From contig CAWBOS010000012.1 of NCBI GenBank assembly GCA_963790475.1, positions 1,184,001-1,248,000 of the forward strand: DNA of 64,000 nucleotides, in the 5' to 3' direction. Position numbers and translations under genes: made by a program. The first letter of the stretch is position 1. Each line of letters starts with the position of its first letter. The notes below the pieces were generated by a model, which saw nothing but the letters and a program-made list of their open reading frames with translations, was not told the origin of the DNA and made no database searches. This document shows, piece after piece, positions 4,481 through 31,948 of this stretch. Source of the DNA: an uncultured delta proteobacterium (lineage in GTDB: Bacteria > Desulfobacterota > RBG-13-43-22).

Positions 4481-4683
4481 TCCCGAGACGATACCCGTTC
4501 CAGGGTGATTTAAGAAGATGCCACAAGGTCATGGCCCGGGGTCAGGATACCCCGGCCCCATCTTTTTTTATAGTCCCCTATGTGAAGCCGTTTCTCAGAT
4601 CATGATTAAAGCGGCCAGAGCTTTCCCCGGGATATCATTCGAATCTTTTCGGGTGAAGACGCATTGATCACTTTAGTAAACAA

Positions 4684-5532: not shown

Positions 5533-5536
5533 CCTC

Positions 5537-8396: not shown

Positions 8397-8836
8397 CAGC
8401 CCCCCATTATTTTCATTCGGTCTTAGGTCGCAAGCGGCCGGAGAGTTCCTATAGATAACAGAAGTTGCCATCCCCGGTAATCCGTTTAGGGGAAAAGGGA
8501 ATTCCGATGAACAACCAAAAAAAGAAATTCTTATTTTTGCTGAATCCGAAAAAATTTTAGCAACAGGCTATAGGAGGAATTCCCGACGAATAAAAAGTCA
8601 TTTTTTGACTTATCACAGGGTATTCAAGCTTGAGACAGGGTTTTCCCAAACTTGCCCAAGTCTAACTGTATGGTTTTTTACCTCTTTTTGCAAGGATGTT
8701 TTTATTGAACCTATTGCCGTTAACTGAACAGAATCCATTTTTTTGCTGACAGACAAATTTCTTGTTAAGTTGTCGGTCCTCTGCTATATTTTTATGATCC
8801 GAATCGTCCAGTAAAAACGGAAGTCAGGGGGGTGTT

Positions 8837-9532
8837 ATGGGAGCTTCAGAAAAAGAAAAGAGAGATAGAGATTCTGTAGAAACCAGAAGGGATTACGCCC
8901 GAACCGCCGAAGCCGATTTTTTGGAAGGTATTTCCCGCTCTTCCGGTCACCAGGAAGAGTCCTTAGTATCCCTTTCGGTGGGGGCCAGGATCAAAGCCGT
9001 TCGGGAAAGAAAGGCCCTTTCCCTGCAGGATGTTGCCCAGCGGACCGGTTTTCCGGAATCGACCATTGCCCAAATTGAAACGGGCGAAATTCTACCTCCC
9101 TTGGGGGACATGGTCAAGTTGGCCCGAGCACTGGAAATGAAAATGGGCTATTTGCTGGTCCAGGGCGAATCCAAACCCTATACCGTGGTCCATAAAAAAA
9201 ACCGAAAGACAGTCTCACGTTACGATTCTCGGAAGACCCTTCGCTATGGATATACCTATGAATCTCTGGCCCCGGAAAAGAAGGAAAGAAACATGGAGCC
9301 TTTTCTGGTCACCCTGCAACCGATCTCTCAGGATGAATCCCCTTCCACGCACGATGGAGAGGAGTTCCTTTTTGTATTGGAAGGAGAGATCGAGGTCATT
9401 TTGGGAGATAAACGAGAAATTCTATCGCCGGAAGATTCGATTTATTATGATTCCACTTTGCCCCACCGCGTACGCGCCTATGGAGATCAAATGGCCAGGA
9501 TTGTGGCTGTACTTTACACCCAGGAAAAGTAA
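8837..9532 (+). CDS. XRE-family HTH-cupin regulator
   Basis: VGARIKAVRERKALSLQDVAQRTG HTH; HDGEEFLFVLEG cupin. Confidence 0.9.
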   Translation: MGASEKEKRDRDSVETRRDYARTAEADFLEGISRSSGHQEESLVSLSVGARIKAVRERKALSLQDVAQRTGFPESTIAQIETGEILPPLGDMVKLARALEMKMGYLLVQGESKPYTVVHKKNRKTVSRYDSRKTLRYGYTYESLAPEKKERNMEPFLVTLQPISQDESPSTHDGEEFLFVLEGEIEVILGDKREILSPEDSIYYDSTLPHRVRAYGDQMARIVAVLYTQEK

Positions 9533-9762
9533 GGGGATAAACCCCAACGATGAACGCTTCGCTAACGCCTTCAGGCCGGTGCATTTAATACCCGGGATTT
9601 CTGCAGCGCCACCCCGCCCGGAAACCACAGTGAAAGAACTGTTTGAATCTGAAATTGTTCATAGTTGATCTTATGAGCAATCCTCACCCTTTATCTTCAG
9701 ACATAGATTTCCCTATAAAATACTGAAAAATCTATTGACAAAAAGAAGAGGCCGCGATTATA

Positions 9763-9790
9763 GTAGCACTTTAATTAATAAAGGTGCTAC
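9763..9790. promoter_or_regulatory. Putative NikR operator upstream of nikR
   Basis: Perfect palindrome GTAGCAC-N14-GTGCTAC directly after a TTGACA-N17-TATAGT promoter. Confidence 0.65.
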
Positions 9791-9791
9791 G

Positions 9792-10208
9792 ATGGGAGTA
9801 TTCAGATTCGGCATATCACTTGAGAAGGCTTTGATTGAGAGGTTCGATCGCCTCATAAAGAAGAAAGGTTATGCAAACCGGAGCGAGGCGATCAGAGACC
9901 TCATCAGAGACAGTCTGGTCACAGAGGAATGGGAATCGTTAAGCGACGAAACCGTGGGAATCATAACCCTGGTCTATTCCCACGACACCAGAGAACTCAC
10001 GGATAACCTTACCGACTTTCAGCATCTTTACCACAACTCGATAATTTCGGCGATGCATATACATCTCGATGAGCATAATTGTCTCGAAGCTATAGTAGTT
10101 AAAGGCAAAGCGATGGATATCAAGATAATCGCAGACAGGTTGATCGGTACAAAAGGAGTGAAACACGGCAAGCTCCTAGTGACAACTACTGGGAAACATT
10201 TGAAATAA
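9792..10208 (+). CDS. nikR: Nickel-responsive regulator NikR
   Basis: [31 protein letters not shown]. Confidence 0.95.
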
Positions 10209-10224
10209 TTTTTTTTACGCAAAA

Positions 10225-10251
10225 GTGGCACGATTATTATAATTGTAGCAC
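10225..10251. promoter_or_regulatory. Putative second NikR site before the uptake operon
   Basis: GTGGCAC-N13-GTAGCAC reuses the same half-site. Confidence 0.5.
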
Positions 10252-10312
10252 CATAATCGGTAAGACACTACAAACAGTAGAATGGAAAGGAGACCGTCTG
10301 AACAAATTCATC

Positions 10313-11065
10313 ATGTCGTGTATGTTTTCTGTAATTGTGTCCTCAGCCCTTTGCTCAGTGTCTTTCGCTTCCCATCCGCTTATCACTGACGATGCCGGAA
10401 CTCAGGGAAAAGGGAAGTTCCAGTTGGAAGTAAACGGGGGGTATGGACAGGATGAAGATGAAGGAGTCACTACCAAAACTACCCAGATTTTGACTATGCT
10501 CACCTATGGCCTGTCAGACCCCGTAGACATCATAATCGGTCTTCCCTATGAGCACACACGGGTCGAGGATTCCGGCACAGTGACCAGGCAAGATGGAATC
10601 TCTGATATGTCTCTTGAAATGAAGTGGCGGTTTTACAAAAAGGACGGACTCAGTTTTGCTCTCAAGCCCGGCATTACCTTTCCGGCCGGCGACGACGAGA
10701 AAGGGTTGGGATCAGGGAGAGTGACCTATCACCTTTTTTTCATCGGGACCAAGGAGATAAAGCCATGGGCGTTTCATCTCAACCTCGGCTATATCAGGAA
10801 CGAAAACAAGCTCGATGAAGATAAGGACCTGTGGCACGGATCTCTTGCCTCAACGGTTGAAGTAAGAAAAAACCTCAAGTTTGTCGGGAATATCGGCCTG
10901 GAGAGAAACACAGACAGGAACCTCAATATTCCGAACGCATTTATTCTTGGAGGCTTCATCTATTCTCTATTAGAGAATTTCGATATCGATTTCGGAGTCA
11001 AAGGCGGATTGACAAAGCCCGAGGAGGATTATACTATCCTAGCGGGTATCACCTGGAGGTTTTAA
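10313..11065 (+). CDS. Putative outer-membrane beta-barrel 'transporter'
   Basis: Signal peptide, HPLITDDAGT, alternating beta-strand pattern, C-terminal TWRF. Confidence 0.7.
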   Translation: MSCMFSVIVSSALCSVSFASHPLITDDAGTQGKGKFQLEVNGGYGQDEDEGVTTKTTQILTMLTYGLSDPVDIIIGLPYEHTRVEDSGTVTRQDGISDMSLEMKWRFYKKDGLSFALKPGITFPAGDDEKGLGSGRVTYHLFFIGTKEIKPWAFHLNLGYIRNENKLDEDKDLWHGSLASTVEVRKNLKFVGNIGLERNTDRNLNIPNAFILGGFIYSLLENFDIDFGVKGGLTKPEEDYTILAGITWRF

Positions 11066-11752
11066 ATGCATATACCTGACGGTTACCTGAGTCCTCAAAC
11101 GTATGTGCCCCTCTTCGGGGCGTCTTTTGTGTTCTGGTCTGTTGCCCTTAAGAAGATGAATAAAGAGCTTTCCATGAAACACATCCCCTATCTGGCTATG
11201 TCAGCGGCTTTTTCTTTTCTTATAATGATGTTTAATGTGCCTATCCCGGGGGGAACCACGGGCCATGCGGTCGGCGGCGGGATTATCGCGATTCTGCTTG
11301 GGCCGTGGACGGCGGTCATAGCCGTATCTGTCAGCCTGATCATTCAGGCCATAGTCTTTGGCGACGGCGGAATAACCGCGATAGGGGCAAACTGCTTTAA
11401 CATGGCGGTGGTCATGCCCTTCGTCTCTTATTGGGTGTTCAGACTTATAAAAGGGAATGCCGATGGCGGCGCAAGGTTATCGATCGCAGCCTTTCTCTCC
11501 GGTTATGTCGGTCTTTCTGTCGCCGCGGTCTTTACCGGGGTCGAATTCGGAATTCAACCAATGCTGGCAACCGGTCCCGACGGAAGACCCCTCTATGCTC
11601 CTTACCCGCTGTCTGTGGCTCTTCCGGCCATGGTCCTGGAGCATTTGCTGATATTCAGCATCGTTGAGGGGGTAGTAACCGTATTGTTATTTCGATATTT
11701 TGCAAGGCATGAGCCAGGGCTGGTCTATGCCTTGAAAGCAAAGGAGGCCTAA
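11066..11752 (+). CDS. cbiM: Ni/Co ECF transporter S component
   Basis: MHIPDGYL N-terminus, GGTTGHAVGG, GDGGITAIGAN. Confidence 0.95.
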   Translation: MHIPDGYLSPQTYVPLFGASFVFWSVALKKMNKELSMKHIPYLAMSAAFSFLIMMFNVPIPGGTTGHAVGGGIIAILLGPWTAVIAVSVSLIIQAIVFGDGGITAIGANCFNMAVVMPFVSYWVFRLIKGNADGGARLSIAAFLSGYVGLSVAAVFTGVEFGIQPMLATGPDGRPLYAPYPLSVALPAMVLEHLLIFSIVEGVVTVLLFRYFARHEPGLVYALKAKEA

Positions 11753-11753
11753 G

Positions 11754-12089
11754 ATGACAAAATCTCAGAAGAAACTCTGGATAGGCCTGCTTATTCTAAC
11801 CCTGCTTACCCCGTTGGGGATCATCCTCCCTGAAAAATTTAAAGCAGGAGGGGCATGGGGTGAATGGGGACCGGAAGAACTTAAGAAGCTTATCGGTTAT
11901 ATGCCGGAAGGATTAAAGAGATTATCTGATCTCTGGAAAGCACCGGTCCCCGACTATAACTTCGGCGGAGAAGGAGCTTCCCTGACTAGCCAGGTAATAT
12001 CTTATATAGTTTCCGGACTTATCGGGATCCTGGCGGTCGGAATTGTTATCTACCTGATTTCAAAGGTTGTTGTAAGGAATGAAAAATAA
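11754..12089 (+). CDS. NikN-like/PDGLE-type accessory subunit
   Basis: Two TM helices, AWGEW, APVPDY; operon position. Confidence 0.8.
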   Translation: MTKSQKKLWIGLLILTLLTPLGIILPEKFKAGGAWGEWGPEELKKLIGYMPEGLKRLSDLWKAPVPDYNFGGEGASLTSQVISYIVSGLIGILAVGIVIYLISKVVVRNEK

Positions 12090-13006
12090 GGTCCCCTCAT
12101 TCCTTACTGGAAAGGCCTTCCTCTGACTCTTTTATTCAGGGCAAGGGGGGCCTGAAGATATCTTTTATCGAGCAGGGCATTCATCACCTGGCGGAGGTCA
12201 TCAAGACCGGATACGTCCAGGGACGAACATCATCGGGCGATAATTTCTTTCATAAGATCGACGCCAGAGTAAAAGTCCTCTTTCTCCTCTTTTATGTAAT
12301 TATCGTCAGCTTAAAAAAAGATATCCAATCGGAATTTTTGATTGGGACCTTTGTCTTCGTGTTGACGTTGTTGTCGCGCCTGGATATTTTCAGTCTTTAT
12401 AAGCGTGTCCTTTTCTTTGCCTTTATCTTCGGTTTTCTCATTGCTCTTCCCTCTGCTCTCAACATCATCACCAAGGGTGAAATTATTCTCCCGATACTGC
12501 ACCTTTCCAAATCCTATCGGTTCTGGATCTATCAGATACCTGAAGAGATCGGCTTCACCAGGGAAGGGGTGTATGGCGTTCTGATACTCACCTCGAGGGT
12601 TCTGAACTCTCTGGCCCTTTCATTCTTTGTTTTGTATACAACAACCTTCACTGAGATAATAAAGGCCCTCAAGGTGTTGAAGGTCCCCGACAGCTTTCTT
12701 ATGATCGTGACCCTATCTTACAAATATGTGTTCATCTTCGCCAAGACGATTGAAGATATGCACTTGGCTAAGAAAAGCCGATTGGCCGGAAAAGTTAGCA
12801 ATGCCGAGGCCAGGCGATGGATCGCCGGAAGGCTGGCCTTCATGTTCAAAAAGAGCCGCTTGCGCTGTGAAGAGATTTTCAAGGCGATGCTCGGCAGAGG
12901 TTATTCAAACAACGTAAAGATCTTCGGGGTCAAGAAGCTCCAGGCCCGCGATTGGATCGCGGGCGCCGTCCTTTTTCTGGTTGGGGTTCTCTTTTTATGG
13001 ATATGA
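12079..13006 (+). CDS. cbiQ: ECF T component CbiQ/NikQ, with a 1-nt frameshift near 12100
   Basis: ATG 12079 MKNKVPSF stops early; the +1 frame continues LLERP...KIDARVK...AKKSR...AMLGRG. Confidence 0.82.
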
Positions 13007-17328: not shown

Positions 17329-17876
17329 CTATTTCTTGGCTTCAACATAGGAAGCAAATAACCTATCCATGCTTGATTTAACCATCTGATGTTTGTTCAG
17401 GGTTGCCTCCAGCAGTTCATCGAAAACAAAGAGAAGGTGCTCATCCAAAATGTTCAAACCCTCTTCGGTGATCCCGCCTTTGGTGGCTACCCGGGCTATC
17501 AATTCATCCAATCCCCTCTTCTTCTCCTGGAGCAGCCGTGCTGTTCCCAGATAGGTTATCAAGACCATTTCTTCGACTCCCTGTTGCGAAAACCGGCTCT
17601 GTTTTAATCCGGCCTGTACAAAATGCCTGAGGATGGAGGCAAAAAAGGCCGGGGCGCAGCTGGTTAAATGCGCCCCGATCTCAAAATGATCTTCAGGGAT
17701 GACCTTGACGATTCCTAAACTTGGACCTCTGGAAACAAGGAGACCAGACCTTTGATTCTTTCTTTCGTTCGGGTAGAGATCAGGACTTCCTGCTGTGAGA
17801 AAGCGCCAAAATCCAAAAGTCCTTTCAGCAAGGAACCCCCCAAACTTCCCAAGCCGATAAAACCAATTTTTTCCAT
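17329..17876 (-). pseudogene. Pyrroline-5-carboxylate reductase/ComER-like, internally deleted
   Basis: KIGFIGLGSLG Rossmann start stops after 53 aa; another frame resumes at LTSCAPAF...VATKGGITEEG; the middle is missing. Confidence 0.75.
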
Positions 17877-17966
17877 TGCCCCTCCTCTTTGGGCCATCCC
17901 GAAATCTGATGGAATCAGTATAAATCCATTGCCGAATAATAACAGATGCAATATTATAAAATTGTT

Positions 17967-18002
17967 ACCAGTACAGTTATATTTTTTATAAACTGTATTG
18001 GT
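17967..18002. promoter_or_regulatory. Putative MocR operator
   Basis: Inverted repeat ACCAGTACAGTT-N12-AACTGTATTGGT in the divergent intergenic region. Confidence 0.6.
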
Positions 18003-18078
18003 TTAAAAATCAGACCACTGTATCTTTGGGAAAGAATTAGTCGGCACTATAATGGGCCTTAGTGAGGGACCGTCATTT

Positions 18079-19509
18079 ATGAAAAATAAGGAATTCAATC
18101 TTTACGAAAAAGTGGCCGCCAATATGGCCCGGCTGATAGACCAGGGCACCTTTCGGCCCGGAGATCGCATCCCTTCCATCCGAGGTCTCAGCCGCCGGAA
18201 GAAGGTCAGTATAAGCACGGTCATGGAAGCTTATCGCCTTCTCGAAGATCGTGAGTTGATCGAAGCCCGTCCCCAGTCGGGTTATTATGTGCGCCGTTTG
18301 TATCACCAGACCCTCATTGAACCAAAACCGACTAAACCGGAGAAAAGTCCGACCACCGTCAGTGTTGATGAGTTGGTCAGGATGGTGATACGAGACAGCC
18401 GGAACCGGAATCTTGTTCCCCTGGGTGCGGCCGTTCCCAATCCTGAAAATCTGCCCGTTGGCAAGTTGAACCGAATCCTGGCCTCCGTGGTCCGGCAAAA
18501 AGGTTCCCAGAGCATTTCCTATGAGATGTCCAACGGCTTCGAGGACCTCCGAGTTCAGATTGCCCGGCGTTTATTCTCTTCCGGGTGCTCATTAAACCCC
18601 CGGGAGATATTGATCACCTCCAGGATGACAGGAAGCGGTTACGCTCTCTCTGATGGCTGTCTGCCGCCCGGGAGACACGGTGGCCATAGAATCCCCGACC
18701 TATTTTAATCATCTCCAAATGTTGGAGGTACTTCGGCGCAAGGCCATAGAAATCCCGACCCACCCCCGTTATGGAATCAGCCTGGAGGCCTTGGGGACAG
18801 TTTTGAAAAAGAACAGGATACGGGCTTGCCTGCTTATCCCCAATTTCAGCAATCCTCTGGGAAGCCTGATGCCCGATTACCGGAAACAGGCACTGGTTAA
18901 AATGCTCGCCCAAAATGACCTTCCCCTCATCGAAGATGACATTTACGGGGATCTTGGTTTTTCTCCGGAAAGGCCAAGAGTGGTCAAAGCCTTTGATAAA
19001 GAAGGACTGGTGCTTCTGTGCTCTTCTTTTTCCAAGACCCTGGCCCCGGGATACCGGATAGGCTGGGTTACCCCGGGACGTTTCCAAACGGAGATAGAAC
19101 GATTGAAATCGGCCTGCACCATCGCCACAGCCACGGTCCCTCAGATGGCCATTGCCGAATTTTTAGTCAATGGGGGTTATGATCATCACCTCAGAAAAAT
19201 CCGAAGGATTTATATGCGGCAGATCTGGTCGATGACCCAGGCGGTAGGGAAATTTTTCCCCCCCGGAACCAAGGTAACCCGGCCGCGGAGGATTTGTGCT
19301 TTGGGTGGAATTACCGGAATATGCCGATGCCCGGAAGCTTTACGAACTGGCGCTGAAGGCCGGGATCACCATTGCCCCCGGCTCCCATCTTTTCCGTCAG
19401 GCAGGGATATCCGAATTATATCCGTCTGAATGCCGCCTTCTGGTCGGATAAAATCGAAAAGGCCCTGGCCACCTTGGGAGGGCTGGTGGAGACGATGAAG
19501 CCTGCCTGA
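18079..19509 (+). pseudogene. MocR-type GntR/PLP-aminotransferase regulator with 3 frameshifts and an in-frame TGA
   Basis: PGDRIPSIR, EARPQSGYYV, EDDIY, SFSKTLAPGYRIGW, GGFVLWVELP; shifts near 18620, 19287 and 19383. Confidence 0.82.
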
Positions 19510-19782
19510 GCCTGTACTAAAATCCCTTTTTTTCTCCTTAACTTCTCTTCAATCTTTTTGATCCCAATATTATATGAAAATAGGTTTAAAAAAAGGGATG
19601 CCCTGGGATGAGCCGAGATAAGGCGGGATATCTTATTTAAATTAAAGGATATTTGAATGACTTTAAAATATAGTTTAGGTTTTAGTTAAAACCTTAAAAA
19701 TTCCATTTTCCCCACCCTATAGAATGAAACTCATAAAACAAAATTAATAAATATTTCTATATATTATAATTGGTCTTAATGG

Positions 19783-19798
19783 AAACCTATTTGCAATT
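19783..19798 (+). repeat. Left-flank end motif AAACCTATTTGCAATT (inverted variant at 19576-19587)
   Basis: 16/16 identical to 29132-29147. Confidence 0.75.
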
Positions 19799-19953
19799 GG
19801 CTTATTAGAGGGTCAAATTTTCAAGTTAAAAATATATAATGAGGGTCATTGTCATTAAGTATCTATAATTTCATAAAAATTTTTCTGATACACAATACCA
19901 AAAGCGAAAACAATGAGGTTCACCAGAGGTTCATCATTTTTTTTATTTTTCCC

Positions 19954-20005
19954 TTGCAAAAACGTTTTTAATGGTGTATTAATATGAGGTACGATAGGAT
20001 CATAT
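19954..20005 (+). promoter_or_regulatory. Sigma70-like promoter plus palindromic operator
   Basis: TTGCAA-N17-TATTAA; ATATGA-N12-TCATAT at 19982-20005. Confidence 0.6.
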
Positions 20006-20011
20006 TTCATA

Positions 20012-20599
20012 ATGATTGATATTTATAGCAATCGAGATCTCGTTAAATGGTTCAAGATGAGCCCTAGTCAGGCCATTCACTGGACCGAGCGCGGCCTAAT
20101 AAGCTTCGTCGTAGATTCAAGAGGTAGAGGATCACAAAGAGGATATGATATTCAGGGAGTTTTCCAGGCTGGCATCGTTAAATCATTATTTGATATGGGG
20201 CTAAGTCTTCATATGGTGAAGAGTATTATGGCTCAACTTGTAAGGCACGAAAAACTCGAAAATATCATGGATCAATTAGATAAACCTCGTCATGATTTGG
20301 TAGAAATTATAGAAAAAGGTCCCATTGGGGTTTTGTTGTATTATCTCATGAAAGATGGGCCTGGAAGATTATTCATCTCCCTTCGTCCCGTTCGAGACGT
20401 TCTCTCGGGCTTTACCGAAGATAGTTTACCCAATGAAGGAATTTCGAATATTAGCGGCTTTATTTTTTTGGACCTGGGGTCAATCTGGTGGCGGGTTCAT
20501 AGAGAGGCTCTTAAGGTTCCACGGAAGGAAACGCTCACTGATCTGGCTGGCGAATGGGAGCACTCAACCGAGAATATACCTACTATTAAAAAGAAATAA
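20012..20599 (+). CDS. MerR-like HTH regulator (putative repressor)
   Basis: YSNRDLVKWF..SQAIHWTERGLI...GRGSQRGY winged HTH. Confidence 0.72.
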   Translation: MIDIYSNRDLVKWFKMSPSQAIHWTERGLISFVVDSRGRGSQRGYDIQGVFQAGIVKSLFDMGLSLHMVKSIMAQLVRHEKLENIMDQLDKPRHDLVEIIEKGPIGVLLYYLMKDGPGRLFISLRPVRDVLSGFTEDSLPNEGISNISGFIFLDLGSIWWRVHREALKVPRKETLTDLAGEWEHSTENIPTIKKK

Positions 20600-20660
20600 A
20601 TTTTTTTGGTGATCATGATATATAATACGATCATATGTCACACTTTAAGTGGAGAAGAAA

Positions 20661-20876
20661 ATGCTTAGTTGGTTAAAATTAAGAATTCGACTCGAATACC
20701 AAGTTCAGGGGGATTTCGCCCGAGCCTGTGGAAAGTCTGAGGCTTGGCTTTCCAGGATAGTTCGAGGGCGGAAAGAACCAACCAAAGAAGACAAAGAGTT
20801 GATCATCTCAAAATTAAAACCAGAATTTCCGGAAATGCTTTTTATTAATACAGACCAGGCAAAAGACGAACAATAA
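20661..20876 (+). CDS. Cro/Ner-like XRE HTH protein
   Basis: QGDFARACGKSEAWLSRIVRGRKEP; sits just before the transposase. Confidence 0.8.
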   Translation: MLSWLKLRIRLEYQVQGDFARACGKSEAWLSRIVRGRKEPTKEDKELIISKLKPEFPEMLFINTDQAKDEQ

Positions 20877-20884
20877 GGCCAGTA

Positions 20885-22738
20885 ATGCGCGAAAAATATA
20901 CATTGACGGTCAAGGAATTTTCTGAACGTGAAAGGATAAGTGTCAGTACGGTAAAGAGGCGCATAAAAGGGAAAAGCATTATTCCCATAAAAATAAAAAG
21001 GCCAAAAGGGTGCAAGGGAAATCGTTTTGAATTAAGAATTTCACATATTTATTTAACAGACAAGGAAAATTTTTTAAAAGAAAAAGGATTATTCCCTGAA
21101 AAGGATGAACTTAAAAACGGTGATTCAAAAAAGAAACAAGAATTAAAGCCTTTTCAAATAAAAGTGGCCGATTATAGATTGAAAATTTTAAAAAAATGTG
21201 ATGCGAGGACTGAAGGCCTCACCGGGAAAATAAGAACAGAAGTTATGAAGGAAGTCGCGAAAGAAGAAGGTAAAACTCTTGGAACCATTAATAGTTATTA
21301 TTCCAGATTTCATAAAGGAGCGTTTGAAGGGTTAGCCCCGCACTGGACGAACGGATCAAGGAAAAAGCGGATTACCAAAGAAATGCGCAAAGATATCAAG
21401 GACCGCTACCTTACGTTAAATGGGGACAATGGTGTTGAGGTCTGTGAGTTTATTGAAAAGAAATATGGTGATCAGGCTCCCTCTCGTAGAACAATTTATT
21501 ATTTTATCACAAAGACTTGGACTCTAGCTACTCGAACGTCCATACGAGAGCCTAATAAATTTAGAAAATTTGATCCTTTTCTTAGAAGAGACCCGTCCAC
21601 TTTAAACCTGCTGGATGTCGTTATTCTCGACGGCAAAAAGATGGATTACCTCGTCTGGTATAAGAATAGACTCATCCGGCCCTGGCTCTACGCGGCTATG
21701 GATTGGAAAAGCAGGAAAACAATAGCCTGGGTTATAACAATAAACCTCAACAGTGATGCGACTGGGCAGGTGATTTACTATATCTATCGCAATTACGGAG
21801 TCGCTGGAGAATTCTATGTTGACAATGGGCCTGAATTTAAGAATGCACACATATTAAGAGTTTGCAGTGAAGCGGGAACTAAAGTTCACCTTGCCTTCGG
21901 TCAGCATCCGCGCGAAAAACCAATTGAAGCCGCTTTTAAATATTTTACTTATCGCCATAAAAATTTTCCGGGATGGGTTGGTCATAATACCAAAATTAGG
22001 GATAACGCGCGCCTGAAACGAGAAATGGAAAATGGACTTATTTGGAAATTCGAAGACTTTGGTCCCGAAGTTGATAAATGGATAATCGAAAGAAATAGCC
22101 AATTGATTCATGGAGATACTAAAAAAACACCCAATAGCTTCTGGGTTGATTTTGTTCCACAGGTTTACTCTGAGGCCCATTGTGACTATCTGCTTATGTT
22201 AAAAGATGAATGCAAGGTGAACGATTCTACGGTTCAAGTTGGGCCAAAGCTTTATAGAGGCACGAAGCTATTGAGATTGGCCGGGCAAAAACTTGTAATC
22301 AGAAGAGATCCTAAAGATCTCTCAAGGGCGGTTGCCTTTTATGAAGAGAAAATTTTTGAGGTCCTAACTGAAGAACGCAGAGATGATGGGCGGGGGCCGC
22401 TAACAGAGGAATCCCGAAAAAATAATAGAAAGATCCGGAAGAACTTTAAAAATTTTCAAAAAGCTGTTCTGGAGGATGAAGAAAATAATTCCGATCTCCT
22501 GTTTTCGGAAGTTCAGAATGGACCGGGAAAACCCCTCCGGAAAAGTGATGTCCGCCACCCTAATGTTATCCGCTTTGATCCGGGGGAGAGACTTTTCAGA
22601 AATACTAAAAAGGCCTTAGCCGAGTCAAAAAATGATGAACTTGAGGAGGCCCAGGAGGCTGCTGCCGGTGGGGGAAGAAAAGATATTTTTTCCAAATTAG
22701 CGAAAATTCACCCCCCAATAGTTGAGGAGGAATATTGA
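20885..22738 (+). CDS. MuA-like DDE transposase
   Basis: N-terminal HTHs; ILDGKKMD, YVDNGPEF, REKPIEAAF triad; IRRDPKDLS C-terminal motif. Confidence 0.9.
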   Translation: MREKYTLTVKEFSERERISVSTVKRRIKGKSIIPIKIKRPKGCKGNRFELRISHIYLTDKENFLKEKGLFPEKDELKNGDSKKKQELKPFQIKVADYRLKILKKCDARTEGLTGKIRTEVMKEVAKEEGKTLGTINSYYSRFHKGAFEGLAPHWTNGSRKKRITKEMRKDIKDRYLTLNGDNGVEVCEFIEKKYGDQAPSRRTIYYFITKTWTLATRTSIREPNKFRKFDPFLRRDPSTLNLLDVVILDGKKMDYLVWYKNRLIRPWLYAAMDWKSRKTIAWVITINLNSDATGQVIYYIYRNYGVAGEFYVDNGPEFKNAHILRVCSEAGTKVHLAFGQHPREKPIEAAFKYFTYRHKNFPGWVGHNTKIRDNARLKREMENGLIWKFEDFGPEVDKWIIERNSQLIHGDTKKTPNSFWVDFVPQVYSEAHCDYLLMLKDECKVNDSTVQVGPKLYRGTKLLRLAGQKLVIRRDPKDLSRAVAFYEEKIFEVLTEERRDDGRGPLTEESRKNNRKIRKNFKNFQKAVLEDEENNSDLLFSEVQNGPGKPLRKSDVRHPNVIRFDPGERLFRNTKKALAESKNDELEEAQEAAAGGGRKDIFSKLAKIHPPIVEEEY

Positions 22739-23703
22739 TGTCTATGTTGGCCTTGCATTCAAATCTATCCGATGATCAGGCTCTAGGAGATGGATATAAC
22801 AGAAAACTTCATGATGACTTTCTTTTTTTAAAGGCCCAACTCGGGATTTCTTATCCAGAAATCGCCCTAGAAATCAATGTCCTTGCGGATACTCTTCAGT
22901 TATACGCGAATAAGCCCTCCATAGGTAATTTTAAAGAGCTTGAAAAAAAACTTGCCCGCTGGGTAGGCAAAAAAATAAATCCCGGACTTCTTCAGGATTC
23001 TAATTATCTTGCGATCAGTCCTTCGGAAAAGGGATTAACCATTTGCCAAGCTTCTCGGATAGAAAGGATTATGGCCCTTATAATTGCTTCTTCCGGTTGG
23101 GGCAAGGCTACGTTTGAAAATGAGTTTTGCCGTCGATTCCCGGACACGGTTTTTATTAGCTGTGATGTCACTATAAGGTCGCTCGGGGCAGTACTTGATC
23201 TACTCGGACACCAAATGCCGGTCGCGAGAAATCATCTAAATAATACCGCCTTTCTCTTGAAAATTATCGACAATTTAAAAAATAGTGGCCGTCTTTTAAT
23301 CGTCGATGAATGCCATTTTTTAAGTTGGCCGGGGTTTGAGATTTTCCGGAAAATTCATGATTGGGCCAAAGTTGGAGTCGTTTATTCCGGTCAGGAGTAT
23401 ACCCTCTCGCAAATGCGAGGGCGAAAAGGCTTTTTGTATGATCAAATCTTTAGCAGGTTATCTATTACTTGTGAGCTTAACACACTAGAGCGAAATGATG
23501 TCGTTCTTTTAGCCGATTCCGTTTGTTCGGGTTTAGATAAAAGATGCATAGATTTCCTAGCCAATAAAGCGCGCGGGCGGGGTCATTTTCGGGTTATGAT
23601 GACTGTGTTGCGAAGGGCCGCACAATTAGCCCAAGCAGAAAATATTCCCCTTACTTTAAATATTTTAAAAGAGGCCAATGAATTTTCAGGAGGTCTGTTA
23701 TGA
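22735..23703 (+). CDS. MuB-like AAA+ transposition ATPase
   Basis: Overlaps the transposase stop; SSGWGKA, LLIVDECH, QIFSRL. Confidence 0.85.
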   Translation: MMSMLALHSNLSDDQALGDGYNRKLHDDFLFLKAQLGISYPEIALEINVLADTLQLYANKPSIGNFKELEKKLARWVGKKINPGLLQDSNYLAISPSEKGLTICQASRIERIMALIIASSGWGKATFENEFCRRFPDTVFISCDVTIRSLGAVLDLLGHQMPVARNHLNNTAFLLKIIDNLKNSGRLLIVDECHFLSWPGFEIFRKIHDWAKVGVVYSGQEYTLSQMRGRKGFLYDQIFSRLSITCELNTLERNDVVLLADSVCSGLDKRCIDFLANKARGRGHFRVMMTVLRRAAQLAQAENIPLTLNILKEANEFSGGLL

Positions 23704-24056
23704 CTTTATCAGTTAAGGCTCAAAAAATTTATGAATCCCTCGATGAAAAAACAAAAAGGGTCATTAAGGGAAGCTACCCTTTTAAAAAGCTTCGGAATGA
23801 GGCCATCGCCGACCTGGGGAAAAAAGGTGTTAATGGGCGCCTCTTGGCTGAGATTACCGGCTTGAGTACTTCCAGTGTAAGCCGCATTTTGGGGACAGGC
23901 GGACAGACGCGATACAAACCCGACAGGAGAGAGGTAGAATTGTGGAAATTAAAAGAGATGATTGATGGACTCTATAAGCGCTACAGGCGCTTTATCTTGG
24001 CCAGAGACGAAAGGAGGGGGAAAAAAGGCATAGATGGCAGGGCGGGGAAGACTTAA
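23700..24056 (+). CDS. HTH protein, possibly a Mor/C-like activator
   Basis: LRNEAIADL..KGVNGRLLAEITGLSTSSVSRIL. Confidence 0.55.
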   Translation: MTLSVKAQKIYESLDEKTKRVIKGSYPFKKLRNEAIADLGKKGVNGRLLAEITGLSTSSVSRILGTGGQTRYKPDRREVELWKLKEMIDGLYKRYRRFILARDERRGKKGIDGRAGKT

Positions 24057-24106
24057 ACGTTTTTAAACGGGTTTTAAAAGCTTTTAAACGCTATAGGGAG
24101 GGAAAA

Positions 24107-24442
24107 ATGAGTCAAGTTCCGAGTGAAGAGCTTAAAAACGTGTTTAATGTACTCGACACGGGGAAAGAGGATGATACAGGAAGACCTTTTAGCGGAGGAT
24201 TGGGGATTTTGGATGACTTGCAAACCTGGGCTTGTAAATTGGAATCACTGGGCGACGCCATAAGTAGTATGGCTTTTGCGGATAGTCAGAATAAATGCGA
24301 TTCAAGTCTTGCGTCTTCTGGTGAACAATTAGGATATATCATTAAAGATTACGCCAAAGCGATTTTTAGTGTTCTTGGGACCCCGGAAATGTATTCACTA
24401 TTTAAGAAAGCCGAGGAAGAGAGACGAGGGAAGAAATTGTGA
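24107..24442 (+). CDS. Hypothetical protein
   Basis: RBS GGGAGG; 111 aa. Confidence 0.65.
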   Translation: MSQVPSEELKNVFNVLDTGKEDDTGRPFSGGLGILDDLQTWACKLESLGDAISSMAFADSQNKCDSSLASSGEQLGYIIKDYAKAIFSVLGTPEMYSLFKKAEEERRGKKL

Positions 24443-24444
24443 TG

Positions 24445-24576
24445 TAGGGTTCTTGGTTTGCCCTGGATAGGCCGATCACCGAAAAGGCGGAAACTCTCAC
24501 CGCCCTGCCAGGGTAAAATAAATGAGAGGCAACCAAGAGAGGGTTGCGATAGCCGGGTGCTATCCAACCCTTTTTT
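24445..24576 (+). ncRNA. Structured leader (C4/CI-like or attenuator) ending in an intrinsic terminator
   Basis: Nested and competing stems; terminator AGGGTTG..CAACCC followed by TTTTTT, 24540-24576. Confidence 0.55.
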
Positions 24577-24590
24577 ATTAGGAGGAGACA

Positions 24591-27035
24591 ATGGCTGAAG
24601 TAAAAATTGAAATCACCGCCCAGGACAATGCCTCCGGAGTTTTTAAAAACATCCAATCTGCAAACAGTTCTGCCCTTAATCAGATGTCCGCTGAAACCAG
24701 GAACTATACCGAGAGCAGCAAGAGCCTGGTCACTTCTCTAAAGGAACACTGGGTCGCCGCCTCGGTGGCCGTTTATGGGGCCTGGAGGTTGATCCAGGAG
24801 GGGCTGGACCTGGCCAAGCTGGGAGCACATGCCCAGCAGGCAGAGGAGTCATTTAGGACGGTTGTCGCTTCATATGGAGAAGATGCAGACGTCCTCCTTT
24901 CTAAAATGAAAGAGGCATCGCGGGGGTTAATTGATGACTCAGATTTGATGCAAAGGGCGGTCAAGGGACTTATGTCAGGGGCAGACTCCTCACAATTGGT
25001 TACACAACTTCAATATGCCAGCTATGGTGCCAGAATAGCCGCAACCTCTGTGGCAGATGCCTATGATATCGCGACAAATGCATTATCAAACCAAATGCTC
25101 CGAGGAGAGAAGGTGGTTGGACTGCAAGGAGACCTAAATAAAGCCTTCACTGAAGAGGCCGAAAAACTTGGAACAGTTGCGGGGGCGCTTAATGAAACGA
25201 CACAAACCCATGCTTTATTTGCTCAGGCGGGAGAGGATGCTATTCAAAAGATGAAGATCATGGGGCCACTTACTGAAAATGCAGCAGAGAAGTTCCAGAA
25301 AATGCAGGTTCAGGTAACGGAATTAAAAGAGACTATTGGAAAAGGACTGGTGGTTGTTTTAGAGACCGTCGGCGCTCTCTTTTATTCAGTGGCCACCGGA
25401 GCCCTGTATTTAGCGGGGGCTTTCGCCACGGTGGGGCAGGGCCTTGATTATATTGCTGGGAATTTAGGAGGTGCCGAGAAACTTAGGGATATTGCGAATA
25501 ACCTTTTCGGCGCTGCCGCCGAAACTAACAAAAAGGCCGAGACCATGTGGAAGGCAGTGGGCGCGGCAATTGAGGGTGCGACCAGCAAAATAAATAATGC
25601 CGCCGCCGCGCAATTGAAATCTGACCAGACTGCCAAACAACAAGCCGATTCTCTAAACTTATTAAAAGATAAAATTAAGGAGGCCAACACCTCTGTCGAG
25701 GAATTCGGGAAAAAGATGGGCGACCTGGCCCCGGACCTGAACGAAACGTCCAAAAAGGTCGCTGATGTGACCCAGGAAGTTCAAAAGATGAAACAAACCT
25801 TGCTGCAAAACGTGGGTCAAAATGTGCTGGACCAATTGGCCCCACAGATCGATGCTGCCGCGGCGGCGGGAATATCCAATATTTATAAGCAGCAGCTCAA
25901 GGATTTTGATGATCTCATGACCGGGATGTCCACTGCCCGCAAAGAAGGGATCACAAAGGATCTGGCCGAGATCGATAAGTCCCTGGCCGATGAGACCAAG
26001 AAATTTGGGAATAACTCGGTGATGATGACCGCCATCGCCCAGGCCGAAGACCTGAAGCGGATCGACAGCCTGAAGAAATGGAAAGATTCCCTGATCTCGA
26101 TGCACAATGAGGCGATCGACAAGGCACGGGAATATTATAAGACCGTCGAGGACCTGAATCTCGAACTCAGCAAAGGCACCATTTTTCTGGATCAATGGAA
26201 AAAGGGATTCCCTTCTGACCAGAAGTCTGTCTTTGAGAAAAGTCGGCAAGATCTTCAACTGATGATTGACATGGCCAACAATAACCCCACCCTGCAAAAT
26301 CTACAGTCCGCCAAGTCGGCCATTGAAAGTTTCGCTCAGCAGAACGATCCCTTGAGGACTACGCTTATAGATACCCCAGGAAAAGGTTTGCAGCCGATAT
26401 GGAAAGATTCTGATGTCGCCAAAATGCAAGATCAATATGCGAGCATCCAGACTTCGATAGCAGGGGTAAAAGATGCGACCCAGACACTTGGCGATTCATC
26501 GATGACAACCGCCATGAAATTTATTGACATTATCAAGCCTATAGATCAGGCGATGGACCTGCTCAAATCAAGAGTCACCGATTATATCGATATGATCTCC
26601 ATCCAAAGGCAGGTCACACTGGATACCTCGCCGGCAGTTGATTCCCTCCAGGCCCTAATCACAAAAACCACAGAGGCCCTGGGCTATATCCAGCAGCTTG
26701 ACCGCTATAATACTTTCTCCACTTCCGCCATGTCCGGCCTTGCGCCCTCGGCTCCGGCTGCCGAGGTGGCGCCCCCCGAAAATGTGCCGGTTATGGCCGG
26801 AGGAACGCCCTACGTCCGTAAGGCGGGATATGCCTGGGTAGATCCGGGCGAGCGGGTGATGACTGCCGACCAGAACCGGGCCTATAGCGGCGGCGGGAAA
26901 CAATCTTCTGTTTCTTTTGGGGATATTAAAATAAGTATTCAGGGAGTCAATGACGTCGAAGAGATCGCCAGGAAAATTGCGATTCCCTTGCAGAAACGAT
27001 TCCGCGAATTGAATCATCTCTTGGGCGGAAACTAA
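24591..27035 (+). CDS. Tail tape-measure-like protein (814 aa)
   Basis: N-terminal VKIEITAQDNAS; long Ala/Gln/Lys helical body with a hydrophobic segment; C-terminal AGGTPYV..GYAWVDPGERVMTADQN. Confidence 0.82.
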   Translation: MAEVKIEITAQDNASGVFKNIQSANSSALNQMSAETRNYTESSKSLVTSLKEHWVAASVAVYGAWRLIQEGLDLAKLGAHAQQAEESFRTVVASYGEDADVLLSKMKEASRGLIDDSDLMQRAVKGLMSGADSSQLVTQLQYASYGARIAATSVADAYDIATNALSNQMLRGEKVVGLQGDLNKAFTEEAEKLGTVAGALNETTQTHALFAQAGEDAIQKMKIMGPLTENAAEKFQKMQVQVTELKETIGKGLVVVLETVGALFYSVATGALYLAGAFATVGQGLDYIAGNLGGAEKLRDIANNLFGAAAETNKKAETMWKAVGAAIEGATSKINNAAAAQLKSDQTAKQQADSLNLLKDKIKEANTSVEEFGKKMGDLAPDLNETSKKVADVTQEVQKMKQTLLQNVGQNVLDQLAPQIDAAAAAGISNIYKQQLKDFDDLMTGMSTARKEGITKDLAEIDKSLADETKKFGNNSVMMTAIAQAEDLKRIDSLKKWKDSLISMHNEAIDKAREYYKTVEDLNLELSKGTIFLDQWKKGFPSDQKSVFEKSRQDLQLMIDMANNNPTLQNLQSAKSAIESFAQQNDPLRTTLIDTPGKGLQPIWKDSDVAKMQDQYASIQTSIAGVKDATQTLGDSSMTTAMKFIDIIKPIDQAMDLLKSRVTDYIDMISIQRQVTLDTSPAVDSLQALITKTTEALGYIQQLDRYNTFSTSAMSGLAPSAPAAEVAPPENVPVMAGGTPYVRKAGYAWVDPGERVMTADQNRAYSGGGKQSSVSFGDIKISIQGVNDVEEIARKIAIPLQKRFRELNHLLGGN

Positions 27036-27068
27036 TTAAAAAAAAGTCATTTGAAAGGAGGGCTCGCT

Positions 27069-28271
27069 ATGGAAAATTCCAGAAATCTTTTAGAGGATAT
27101 TGAGAGGACACTCTTTTACCAACGTCATGGTTCAACTGGATTGAGCATCGGAAAAGACGAACTTCAAAAGGGAAGAGATGCCCTTGTTAAAACCTTCATC
27201 CCCGAATACCCTTCGGGCGGGTTTAGTGGGTTCAAGGGACTCCGGGAAGCCTACATTTACTTTACCGGAGATAATGAACTGCGCGGCAAGGCAGCCGGTT
27301 TCAGCCCCTCTAAGGTGTCGAGTGGCCTGCGGGGTTGCGCCGACTTCAATTCAAATACTTTCAGCTTTGCCCTGCAAAATGCTTTAAATATGTACCTCTC
27401 TAAGGCCTATGCGGCATTCCCTTACCACGAAGAGATATTCATCTCTGAGATAAAGACGGTCACTGATTTCAGGAAAATTACTTCCCTTCAATTGGCCTAC
27501 CCAGGAGATCTTCCTGATGTCGATCCGGAGGCGGGCGATTATCAGTCTCTTGGAGAGTATATAGATACCGAGTCTCAATATGATCTTGAACACAAAGGAG
27601 GGATCACCTGGGTAACGAGAAAACACCTCATCAATGATTCGGTAGGTCTGGTTCAGGCCATGATTAATAGAAGGGCGCGATCCGCCAGGAGAACTCATGC
27701 GAAATTTGTTTGGAGCTTTTTTATTAATAACTCCAACTGTCCGGATGGAACGGCGTGGTTTACTGCGCCACATGGGAACTTAGGATCAGACGCCTTGAAT
27801 TTTGATCCCCTGGCCGCAGCCATCACGGCCCTGGCTGATATGGAGGAACCGGGGTCAGGAGAAAAGCTTGGGATGGATCTTGCCAGCTTTAATTGGAATC
27901 TGGTTATCCCTATTGCCCTCTGGAAGCTGGCCATATCGAAAAATCAGGCAAGGCATTATTATGATTCAAACGATTTAACTGACAAGATCGAGAATCCAAA
28001 CTGCCGCCTGTTCGGTGATCATAACGAAAGAATTATCGTCTGTCCCTTTATCACTGATTCTAACGATTGGGGAGTTGTTAGAGATAAAAATGATGTCCCG
28101 ATTATCGAAATGTCTTATCTTAATGGACATCAGGAACCGGAATTTATTACTGCCGATGCGTCACTAGCCGAGAGAAATTTTCGATCAGACGACTATGGCT
28201 ATAAGATCAGACATGAATATGGCGGCACCTTGGCCGGATCACAGGGCGGATACAAATCCGTTGTAGCCTAA
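27069..28271 (+). CDS. Mu gpT-like major capsid protein
   Basis: FALQNALNMYL..AY, VTDFR, GDLPDVDPEAGDY, VTRKHLINDSVG, RSARRT, YLNG..EPE, YKIRHEYG. Confidence 0.8.
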   Translation: MENSRNLLEDIERTLFYQRHGSTGLSIGKDELQKGRDALVKTFIPEYPSGGFSGFKGLREAYIYFTGDNELRGKAAGFSPSKVSSGLRGCADFNSNTFSFALQNALNMYLSKAYAAFPYHEEIFISEIKTVTDFRKITSLQLAYPGDLPDVDPEAGDYQSLGEYIDTESQYDLEHKGGITWVTRKHLINDSVGLVQAMINRRARSARRTHAKFVWSFFINNSNCPDGTAWFTAPHGNLGSDALNFDPLAAAITALADMEEPGSGEKLGMDLASFNWNLVIPIALWKLAISKNQARHYYDSNDLTDKIENPNCRLFGDHNERIIVCPFITDSNDWGVVRDKNDVPIIEMSYLNGHQEPEFITADASLAERNFRSDDYGYKIRHEYGGTLAGSQGGYKSVVA

Positions 28272-28379
28272 AGAATAGAGTTTCCCAAAGCCCATAGCCT
28301 TTCCTCCCTATGGGTTCCAGGCAGGGCGGTTTCTGACCCAAAGCAGAAATCGCCCTTAGCTTGGAATAAAAGGACTTGC

Positions 28380-28760
28380 ATGAGAAAAAGCGATTTTTTA
28401 ACTGATATTGCCCAAAACTATGAACCAAAGATTGAAGCAGTATTTTTTTGTAATGAGAAGTGTTTGCCAAAAGGTGTTTTTGGTATGGCAAATGCCCTCC
28501 CCAGTCTGGAATGGTATCGAATTCTTATTCACAATAAACTTCTTTTCTGCCCGATCCGCTCCTTTTGGACCTTTTTCCATGAGCTTGGTCATATTGTTTT
28601 GGGTCACTTTGGCCGGATGGATGATGGAAGTGAGGAGAGGGCCGCAGGCGAATGGGCATTCAGGGAGATGGGAACAATTGACCAAGAGGGAAAGATAAAG
28701 AAGGAAAACGCCTTTTGTTATGTTTGCCTCTCTACCTATTCAAAATCATGCCTTAAATAA
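28380..28760 (+). CDS. ImmA/IrrE-like HExxH metallopeptidase
   Basis: FFHELGHIVLGH...EERAAGEWA. Confidence 0.7.
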   Translation: MRKSDFLTDIAQNYEPKIEAVFFCNEKCLPKGVFGMANALPSLEWYRILIHNKLLFCPIRSFWTFFHELGHIVLGHFGRMDDGSEERAAGEWAFREMGTIDQEGKIKKENAFCYVCLSTYSKSCLK

Positions 28761-28764
28761 TTTC

Positions 28765-28974
28765 ATGACCAAATACGACCCCAAAAAAGCAGAACAATAT
28801 AAGGGACGTCCACATTCCCACTATCGGAACCAGGGCAAGCATAAATGCAGGTTATGTGGGAAGAAAACAGACAATCATTGGAACTGCCCGGAGTGCCTGG
28901 AAAGGATGGCCAAAGGAGAGATCGAGGCGCCGGTAACCGATATCTTGGGCCAGGATCTCGACGTGCCTTTATAG
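28765..28974 (+). CDS. Small zinc-finger protein
   Basis: CRLCG...WNCPEC. Confidence 0.6.
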   Translation: MTKYDPKKAEQYKGRPHSHYRNQGKHKCRLCGKKTDNHWNCPECLERMAKGEIEAPVTDILGQDLDVPL

Positions 28975-29131
28975 TAGGCTTTAAAGCCGTTTTAGCGGGC
29001 CATTTATGGGCCTTTAAATTTGTTTTAAACTGATCTTAAAGGATCTCCTTCGCTGCTAGTTTGGGGATCGGAAGCTCTTCAAGATCGAATAGGATTTGTG
29101 TTCTCTTTTTTTCTCGCCGTTTTTTTTATTG

Positions 29132-29176
29132 AAACCTATTTGCAATTTTTCAAAACCTATTTGCGCGTTTTACCCA
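29132..29176 (+). repeat. Right-flank tandem end motifs (putative transposase-binding sites)
   Basis: AAACCTATTTGC at 29132 and 29153 (21-bp period). Confidence 0.75.
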
Positions 29177-29313
29177 ATTGGAAATCAATTGTAATAAGTA
29201 TCCCTTCATTTTCCTACTGGTTCTGTAGGAAAAACCATTCAAATTATTTTATCCAAATTGCTTGTATTTAAAAATAATAATATAATTCATCAAGTTATAT
29301 TTAACTATCCCCA

Positions 29314-29328
29314 TGGCATATTCTTTGC
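29314..29328 (+). promoter_or_regulatory. Sigma-54 promoter
   Basis: TGGCATATTCTTTGC, GG-N10-GC. Confidence 0.65.
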
Positions 29329-29510
29329 TGAAGTAGTTGCTAAAGGCCTCTGGTTGTTTCGGCTATAAAAAAATTCAATCGGGTACCCTAACTTAACCCG
29401 GAATCCATAGCCGATTCAAAAGAAAAACCTGTCTCCTGTTTTAACCAAATTGAAAAAACGATTGAATAAAACCTATTAACTAATTGGTCAATTAAGGGGA
29501 GGCAAATATC

Positions 29511-31803: not shown

Positions 31804-31948
31804 CCTAAGTCGCTCTTATTCGAAAATGATATTTTCGGATGAGAGCTATCAGCGATTAGCGGTCAGCTTTTAGAAAACCCTTTTAAAAGTGCTTTTGCAG
31901 ATGCTATAGGCTAATCGCTATCCGTTTCATCTGAGTATTAAATCGTCC

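Follow-up and report, generated by a model that had tools for sequence, protein, structure and literature searches.

A compact Mu-type transposable element with its own capsid and tape-measure genes, from a widespread family of candidate phage satellites

To our knowledge, all well-described families of phage satellites integrate by site-specific recombinases. Satellites of the P4, PICI/SaPI and PLE types use tyrosine or serine recombinases and remodel the capsid of their helper via scaffold-like proteins, some of them redirecting capsid size, and cf-PICIs have a site-specific integrase along with a more complete set of head genes, for portal, protease, connectors and small terminase. Packaging of a Mu-ended element by a helper is known from the laboratory: mini-Mu, which is devoid of virion genes, is packaged by helper Mu via a headful mechanism. 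Here we analyzed a window of 64,000 nucleotides (the whole stretch of DNA presented above, with positions counted from its first letter) from the genome of an uncultured delta proteobacterium. We describe a 9605-bp Mu-type element, located at 19568-29172, that carries genes for a MuA-type transposase and a MuB-type ATPase together with genes for a capsid protein and a tape-measure-like protein. It belongs to a widespread, diversified and previously undescribed family of compact Mu-type elements, for which a satellite lifestyle is weighed below against other explanations.

The element is bounded by CCCAA on both flanks, at 19563..19567 and 29173..29177. As CCCAA stands on each flank 14 bases outside the conserved core, the unit measures 9605 bp and is flanked by a 5-bp target-site duplication. 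The segment 19568-29172 is thus a complete Mu-type transposable unit, and it is probably active. A first-pass annotation, made from the letters alone, had proposed an element at 19510-29200 and pointed to one motif on both flanks; the element and the motif are there, and the limits have been refined. With at most one mismatch allowed, the end motif has 4 matches compared with 0.48 expected, a count reached in none of 100 shuffles, and it is arranged as one inverted copy at the left terminus and two tandem copies with 21-bp spacing at the right. The left terminus (19568..19587, + strand) starts with TA and contains a candidate transposase site, L1, in which the right-end motif appears inverted. 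About 97 bp from L1, at 19672..19690 (+ strand), visual inspection showed a degenerate match that is a candidate second left-end site, L2; the paired left inverted sites of other elements are spaced by about 92-95 bp. At the right end, motif search and comparison with relatives place the tandem 21-bp sites at 29125..29166 (+ strand; inner 29125-29145, outer 29146-29166), followed by a terminus that ends in TA according to the comparison of ends (29167..29172, + strand). An extra exact copy of the motif in right-end orientation was found by motif search within the left region (19783..19794, + strand). In Mu, two spaced sites make up the left end and two adjacent ones the right end, and several compact elements are arranged likewise. 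The end sites are putative MuA binding sites.

Similar ends were found elsewhere. The tandem right-end arrangement is present in nine other loci, which correspond to eight distinct elements, and the left terminus is homologous to the left end of an element in the genus mate G014. Six further independent insertions, in units of 8257-13632 bp, have ends built in the same way and, equally and symmetrically spaced from them, a perfect 5-bp duplication. The duplications are ACTAT in the G014 relative (L039, 8257 bp), AAAGG in L041 (9134 bp), ACAAA in L063 (9002 bp), AAAAA in L067, identical to L068 (9045 bp), GTTCT in L056 (9294 bp) and GCATG in L013 (13632 bp). The window element and these six duplicated-target relatives are complete mobile units, not fragments of larger prophages.

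Ten co-directional open reading frames (ORFs), all on the + strand, lie within the element at 20012-28974, as the first-pass annotation had stated. Its MuA, MuB and capsid calls were borne out by profile matches above cut-off. The MuA-type DDE transposase (617 aa, 20885..22738) matches phrog_310 (E 3.8e-53), a hidden Markov model (HMM) of its own family (E 2.4e-106) and Pfam Mu-transpos_C (26.9 bits, cut-off 21.7). The adjacent MuB-type AAA+ transposition ATPase (322 aa, 22735..23703) matches phrog_296 (E 1.3e-32), its family HMM (E 1.6e-68) and, above cut-off, AAA_22 (32.8 bits). The stand-alone HK97-fold major capsid protein (MCP) of 406 aa, encoded at 27051..28271, matches PF25209 with an E-value of 3.7e-25 (90 bits, cut-off 27). 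It also matches the C-terminal half of an NCBIfam protease/MCP-fusion model (E 3e-36). Full phages bear this domain in a protein of ~800 aa, the N-terminal half of which is missing from the window protein. A structural model built from 20 sequences (mean predicted local distance difference test (pLDDT) score 70.7) gave 199 Foldseek matches in the PDB at E<=0.001; among the matches listed, all were HK97-fold capsids or encapsulins. The capsid protein is accordingly predicted by the model to have a complete HK97 fold.

Upstream of the capsid gene, in a non-canonical order, lies the gene for an 814-aa tape-measure-like protein (TMP; this type is referred to as TMPa, 24591..27035). No Pfam or NCBIfam model matched it. 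Its homologues (31-33% identity over ~250 aa) occupy the tape-measure position of full phages, after neck and tail genes, an HMM built from five members outside the window's genome matches it with an E-value of 9e-15, and its neighbours in a protein atlas (score 0.97) are named lambda-gpH-type or TMP_3. On these three grounds the earlier tape-measure call holds. The element had also been said to carry neither packaging or tail genes nor debris of them. In agreement with this, no protease/scaffold domain, neck, tail tube or sheath, or baseplate was found among the ten ORFs, and tblastn with proteins of related full phages found no remains of genes for terminase, portal, MuF or tail in the element. 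None of the ten ORFs matched lysis families in Pfam, PHROG and NCBIfam, scans that small holins could escape, and no integrase family of these three collections was matched. Of the virion genes, the window element keeps only those for the capsid and the TMP, the TMP being a feature of this sub-lineage.

The same genome (G000) harbors a second copy of this arrangement. Copy B, on contig C10 (L006), has a gene order identical to that of the window element, and the encoded proteins are 27% (MuA), 37% (MuB), 87% (118-aa protein), 60% (TMP), 73% (capsid), 73% (peptidase) and 86% (zinc ribbon) identical. The late module is conserved while MuA is only 27% identical compared with 73% for the capsid, which indicates that the capsid module was retained across swaps of the transposition module. 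The ends of copy B (~4700 and 13830) are of the same kind as those of the window element. No matching 5-bp duplication was found by eye, possibly as a result of later rearrangement or of a misplaced terminus. Copy B lies between an HTH_17 (excisionase-like) gene and an SMC gene. The window element is one of a conserved family present at different insertion sites, a point that the first-pass annotation had proposed to check.

Searches with the capsid protein returned 202 relatives, mostly ~390-420 aa long and metagenomic, and contig scans yielded 21 loci from genomes and 80 from metagenomes. The relatives in genome contigs were found by an alignment-based scan, a single-protein scan having found none, and ORFs were called and clustered on all relative loci. 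At least 17 near-complete relatives are present in other genomes or metagenomes. Loci with a short capsid follow the order regulators, MuA, MuB, a helix-turn-helix (HTH) protein designated F9 and/or a GemA homologue (PF06252), F2, capsid, HExxH peptidase and F7; in an alignment read by eye, F7 consists of two zinc ribbons and a C-terminal segment resembling a ribbon-helix-helix (RHH) domain. The core of the family is formed by MuA, MuB, the small HTH protein, F2, the capsid, the peptidase and the zinc-ribbon/RHH protein. Among short-capsid loci with at least 4.5 kb upstream, MuA and MuB were found there in 17/17, TerL in 0/17 and MuF in 0/17. The same flank of long-capsid loci contained MuA/MuB in 0/18, TerL in 13/18, portal in 17/18 and MuF in 11/18; these rows include the duplicates L007=L059, L016=L084, L011~L066 and L067~L068. 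A portal gene was found in 2 of the 46 short-capsid loci. The compact elements with a portal are L012 and L008, and a neck protein is encoded in L007 and L063.

Within the phylum, the short capsid was detected in 3 of the 401 sampled genomes, namely G000 and the congeners G158 and G049. The loci in the latter two (L126 on G158:C4 and L127 on G049:C42) are intact elements of ~8.8 kb in two species of one genus with the same downstream genes, which suggests that an intact element has been inherited vertically since the species split, or that the two share a target. One relative is clearly decayed: L039 (G014:C27, reverse strand 4318-12574) has homologous ends, frameshifted MuA and MuB and no capsid or TMP, and it keeps the GemA homologue and a full-length F7. 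Three other compact elements have a gene for an anaerobic ribonucleotide reductase as their immediate downstream neighbour (L012, 13646-16663; L047, 8775-11726; L073, 15162-15375). The NrdD downstream of L012 matches PF13597 with an E-value of 2.4e-201, and L012 and L047 also share the next gene. The three elements differ in gene content, and the neighbourhood could reflect a shared target, shared insertion ancestry or cargo. A metagenome contig of 9543 bp (L052) is circularly permuted, with both ends inside MuB and a 102-nt overlap at 94% identity. On it, a right end with two tandem sites is followed after ~100-115 bp by a left end, a layout that could reflect two copies in close tandem, a circular molecule or a join made in assembly.

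The capsid links these elements to full Mu-like phages. Residues ~60-405 of the window capsid align with the last ~340 residues of proteins of 750-890 aa at 35-46% identity, and the loci of these long proteins also encode TerL, portal, MuF, neck and tail proteins and a TMP. In one full phage that was checked directly (L020), MuA and MuB lie 18 kb upstream on the same contig, and its MuA is 45-50% identical to that of compact elements. A quick IQ-TREE phylogeny of the capsid domain (75 rows) placed 37 distinct short capsids on one side of a branch with a support of 99 (Shimodaira-Hasegawa-like approximate likelihood ratio test), the two copies of the window's genome being sisters (96) and L041 their next relative (99). 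Judged from these sequences, the short capsids make up a single clade whose sister group is the ~800-aa fused capsids of full Mu-like phages, and the compact clade has its origin in full Mu-like phages from the same bacterial phylum. The locus L018 (9419-11011) is intermediate: its capsid protein of 530 aa is encoded 3.4 kb downstream of MuA and clusters with the long capsids in the phylogeny, and genes for proteins of 394, 402 and 542 aa follow. Deposited phages are more distant. Among 50,697 phage records the nearest capsid is 30% identical (Microcystis phage Mae-JY22, 41 kb), and the nearest MuA proteins are 22-28% identical and come from Mu-like phages of 37-42 kb (Bacillus phage BalMu-1, Pelagibaca phage vB_PeaS-P1, Fusobacterium phage phiRTG5 and Ochrobactrum phage POA1180).

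The description of the element as carrying only tape measure and capsid is accurate for the window and is not a rule of the family: by our own reading of the gene clusters a TMP is encoded in 6 of 17 near-complete elements, and the capsid is universal in this capsid-sampled set. The next relative L041 has F2 and F7 and no TMP, so the TMP of the window's sub-lineage is a gain. The TMPs of compact elements are not one another's closest relatives: those of L012 and of L070/L073 are nearer to full-phage TMPs than to that of the window. Unrelated types stand after the capsid gene in L015 (PF20155, E 1.8e-17) and in L008 and L013 (matches to TMP PHROGs), and the TMP of L079 clusters with that of L008. 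Overall, the TMPs of at least three TMPa sub-lineages and three unrelated TMP types are independent captures. Compact elements encode TMPs of 778-814 aa compared with 848-965 aa for complete ones of full phages. The proteins are therefore about as long as those of full phages and a change in tail length is not indicated, contrary to the initial idea that the element sets the tail length of its helper.

Both particle genes are maintained by selection. Relative to copy B, the dN/dS values were 0.12 (capsid), 0.16 (TMP), 0.19 (F9) and 0.33 (peptidase); four other pairs gave 0.085-0.125 for the capsid. Although dS is high and reaches saturation in some other genes, pN was far below pS in all dN/dS comparisons. 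The capsid and tape-measure genes are under purifying selection. The arrangement is thus not unique to this genome, its evolution is not neutral and the capsid and TMP calls hold, in line with the earlier view of the locus as more than the remains of a single prophage.

The remaining ORFs encode small proteins. Two precede the transposition genes: Reg1, a candidate regulator of 195 aa (20012..20599) with a weak MerR-like HTH match (E 0.0044, 17.5 bits, cut-off 21.6) and homologues in the same position in L006, L039, L041, L043 and L056, and Reg2, an HTH protein of 75 aa (20649..20876) in a conserved, Ner/Cro-like position (HTH_31, E 2.3e-4, 21.9 bits, cut-off 27). Downstream of MuB, F9 (118 aa, 23700..24056) combines an HTH with a long C-terminal helix (model pLDDT 89) and is the protein that is 87% identical in copy B. 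An assignment of F9 as Mor-like was considered and dropped, as profile comparison with PDB sequences gave weak generic HTH matches only (best E 0.024). Its confident model had no Foldseek match at E<=0.001 and no significant Pfam or PHROG family match was found, for which reason it is named merely an HTH protein. F11 (111 aa, 24107..24442) had no match in Pfam, PHROG or NCBIfam and matches a family HMM (E 3.2e-15). Following the capsid gene, F6pep (126 aa, 28380..28760) is a HExxH metallopeptidase-like protein (phrog_87, E 1.4e-4; family HMM, E 1.6e-41) whose motif is kept in 29/29 family members from other loci. The last ORF (84 aa, 28720..28974) encodes a zinc-ribbon protein with a weak match below cut-off (E 0.0044), 86% identical in copy B, which by eye resembles the zinc-ribbon part of F7 and lacks its C-terminal RHH-like segment. 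The MerR-like, Cro/Ner-like and zinc-finger calls of the first-pass annotation are thus weak, each with a match below cut-off.

A non-coding block between L1 and L2 (19590..19650, + strand) stood out in an alignment of four elements. The block (~55 bp) is nearly invariant in the window (19590-19650), L006 (~4725-4790), L039 and L041 (~150-215), elements whose MuA proteins are merely 27-46% identical and whose end sites differ. It is a candidate pac or regulator site, which at this stage is a guess. In IMG/VR, a long pattern of the block had no match and a short pattern had 10, a number at or below chance by a rough estimate; none of the 10 adjoins a related gene.

The flanks of the element are ordinary host genes, with a GntR/aminotransferase gene upstream and a response regulator gene downstream. 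The upstream MocR-type gene (18052-19509) is split over three frames. The sole public DNA run found to contain the window DNA covers 27% of its words in the form of low-depth contigs, and no RNA run was found. These contigs have two bases fewer at 19284 and one fewer at 19384, and the frameshifts are therefore probably indel errors of the window assembly. In the genus mate G009 (L040, G009:C315), homologues of 17825-18001 and 29193-29330 lie 35 bp apart, which identifies a genome without the element and without the adjoining MocR-type gene. Further downstream, a repeat of ~85 bp (31815-31898) is present in dozens of copies (80-95% identical), both here and in the genomes of genus mates, G009 and G019 above all, and looks like a miniature inverted-repeat transposable element or a repetitive extragenic palindromic element.

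Taken together, we lean towards the interpretation of the compact Mu-type element as a phage satellite. This lifestyle is favoured because the genes kept or gained all encode particle parts and are under purifying selection, because they trace back to a single group of full Mu-like phages within the same phylum, because the element sizes fit small capsids and because helper headful packaging of a Mu-ended element is known for laboratory mini-Mu. On such a scheme the element would reside as an integrated transposon and, upon infection or induction of a Mu-like helper, would be amplified by replicative transposition. The late module (capsid, peptidase, zinc-ribbon protein and TMP) would then be expressed, perhaps via the small HTH protein, and terminase, portal, protease/scaffold and tail of the helper would be used, with headful packaging starting from the left end of the element. 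The short capsid protein might form the shell or modify it, and the shell would plausibly be smaller, with room for 9-14 kb; known satellites with small capsids fall into this size class. Finally, the TMP of the element would replace that of the helper in the tail, with a possible effect on the specificity of injection or defence and not on tail length. A prophage defence described in Mu-like Pseudomonas phages, the Tab system, has the TMP as the determinant that it recognises (PMC10884400). The chances are roughly balanced that these elements represent the first satellites integrating and replicating by Mu-type DDE transposition, with their own capsid for particles of 9-14 kb and with repeated capture of TMP, portal and neck genes re-tooling the injection apparatus and head of the helper.

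Several observations weigh against a satellite lifestyle. The window's genome (20 contigs, 100% complete by markers, 9.7% contamination) yielded no TerL, portal, MuF, neck or tail homologue with 11 family HMMs and tblastn, and no match to PF03237 or PF04860. A search of this genome with PF06074 was uninformative, its control being silent everywhere. No long-capsid match was found in any of the three short-capsid genomes of the 401 sampled, and TerL of the full phage L027 was not found in 5/5 carrier metagenome-assembled genomes in a search that had no positive control. Full Mu-like relatives occur in the same phylum as the carriers and none was found resident in the carrier genomes examined, so the helper, if any, is not a resident prophage there. 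Neither a pac site nor a small terminase was identified, the left-end block being a candidate only. The window element and copy B lack F2 and a full-length F7, which are present in most relatives, and the TMP is absent from 11/17 near-complete elements and hence not essential to the lifestyle. Finally, dS is near saturation for several pairs and the capsid tree is a quick version.

The main rival to the satellite interpretation, with which it is also compatible, is that of a transposon with anti-phage cargo. Here the element would never be packaged; its homologues of capsid and TMP would instead serve as decoys or dominant-negative subunits that spoil head or tail assembly of invading Mu-like phages, protecting both host and element. 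We regard this as unlikely, although part of the evidence suits it well: no carrier genome examined contains a resident helper, purifying selection on capsid and TMP fits equally well, and a TMP-centred defence that blocks assembly is documented in Mu-like phages (PMC10884400). However, the capsid keeps a complete predicted HK97 fold and is conserved at full length across a deep clade, and some members add a portal or neck protein, suggesting particle building over blocking. The narrow size range of 8.3-13.6 kb is likewise left unexplained by a pure defence role.

Decay offers a different account, in which the element is a mini-Mu-like deletion derivative of a prophage that still transposes and whose capsid and TMP are functionless leftovers. 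The frameshifted MuA and MuB of the G014 relative, which has no capsid or TMP, and the absence of F2 and full-length F7 from the window lineage speak for such a process. It is nonetheless improbable given that the short capsids are monophyletic and diverse, that dN/dS is 0.09-0.16 for capsid and TMP, and that a 73%-identical capsid module next to a 27%-identical MuA in the two copies points to retention across swaps. Moreover, the units are bounded, gene debris is not present and TMPs were repeatedly gained, not only lost. Autonomous use of the capsid-fold protein as an encapsulin-like shell or a helper-independent minimal particle is very improbable, for although an encapsulin is the best Foldseek match (E 1.4e-6, practically tied with phage capsids) and no helper was found, the capsid sequence nests among phage capsids as sister to those of Mu-like phages, the element has neither cargo gene nor terminase, and the TMP, portal or neck neighbours in relatives make no sense for an encapsulin.

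Were the satellite interpretation true, a transposing satellite would insert almost anywhere and copy itself during the helper cycle, and packaging with flanking host DNA would make it a generalised transducing agent too. One and the same HK97 domain occurs in full phages as part of a protein with a long N-terminal half and in compact elements as a stand-alone protein, which amounts to a natural experiment on capsid assembly, and the repeated independent capture of TMPs points to this protein as a contested part in phage-phage or phage-satellite conflict. Satellite finders rely on integrases and known marker sets and would therefore probably miss these elements. We found no satellite moving by a DDE or Mu-type transposase in the full-text literature, and none of the terms transposase, transposable, Mu-like and DDE occurs in the main texts of two large satellite surveys (PMC10085698, PMC9618062).

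Among described systems, Mu-like phages share with the element the MuA/MuB pair, the 5-bp duplication, the spaced left and adjacent right pairs of end sites and a gpT/HK97-type capsid, and GemA homologues (PF06252) occur in its relatives. In contrast to these phages, the element has 9605 bp rather than the 37-42 kb of the nearest records, far below a headful genome of about 35-42 kb, has neither a complete virion module nor a match to lysis families, carries its TMP gene upstream of the capsid gene and is only 22-30% identical to deposited phages. Its termini are TA, unlike the TG...CA of Mu. Laboratory mini-Mu likewise consists of Mu ends with A and B, but it is engineered, has no capsid or TMP and forms no natural lineage. 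Tn7-like and Tn5053/Tn402-like transposons have in common with the element a DDE transposase with Mu-transpos_C, an AAA+ partner and a 5-bp duplication. They differ in that none of the ten ORFs matched TnsA, TniQ/TnsD or a resolvase (Pfam, PHROG, NCBIfam), the best transposase and ATPase matches are to phage families, relatives encode GemA and the MuA of compact elements shares 45-50% identity with its counterpart in a full phage. Encapsulins share the shell fold, but the window capsid falls in phage families and has no cargo candidate.

Known satellites resemble the element in lifestyle features rather than in mobility. The general satellite combination of own integration and replication genes with an incomplete set of virion genes is found here. 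P4, PICI/SaPI and PLE are similar in size class, in their incomplete virion set and in presumed helper dependence; unlike them, the window element supplies a capsid protein itself and moves by a DDE transposase. Like the element, cf-PICIs (10.1101/2025.02.11.637232) are small and integrated, bring their own HK97 capsid and have no tail genes, and a cf-PICI capsid structure (9gyi) is among the fold matches of the window capsid, at rank 50. In contrast to cf-PICIs, the window element moves by DDE transposition, matches no integrase and belongs to a family in which the capsid is, as a rule, the sole head gene.

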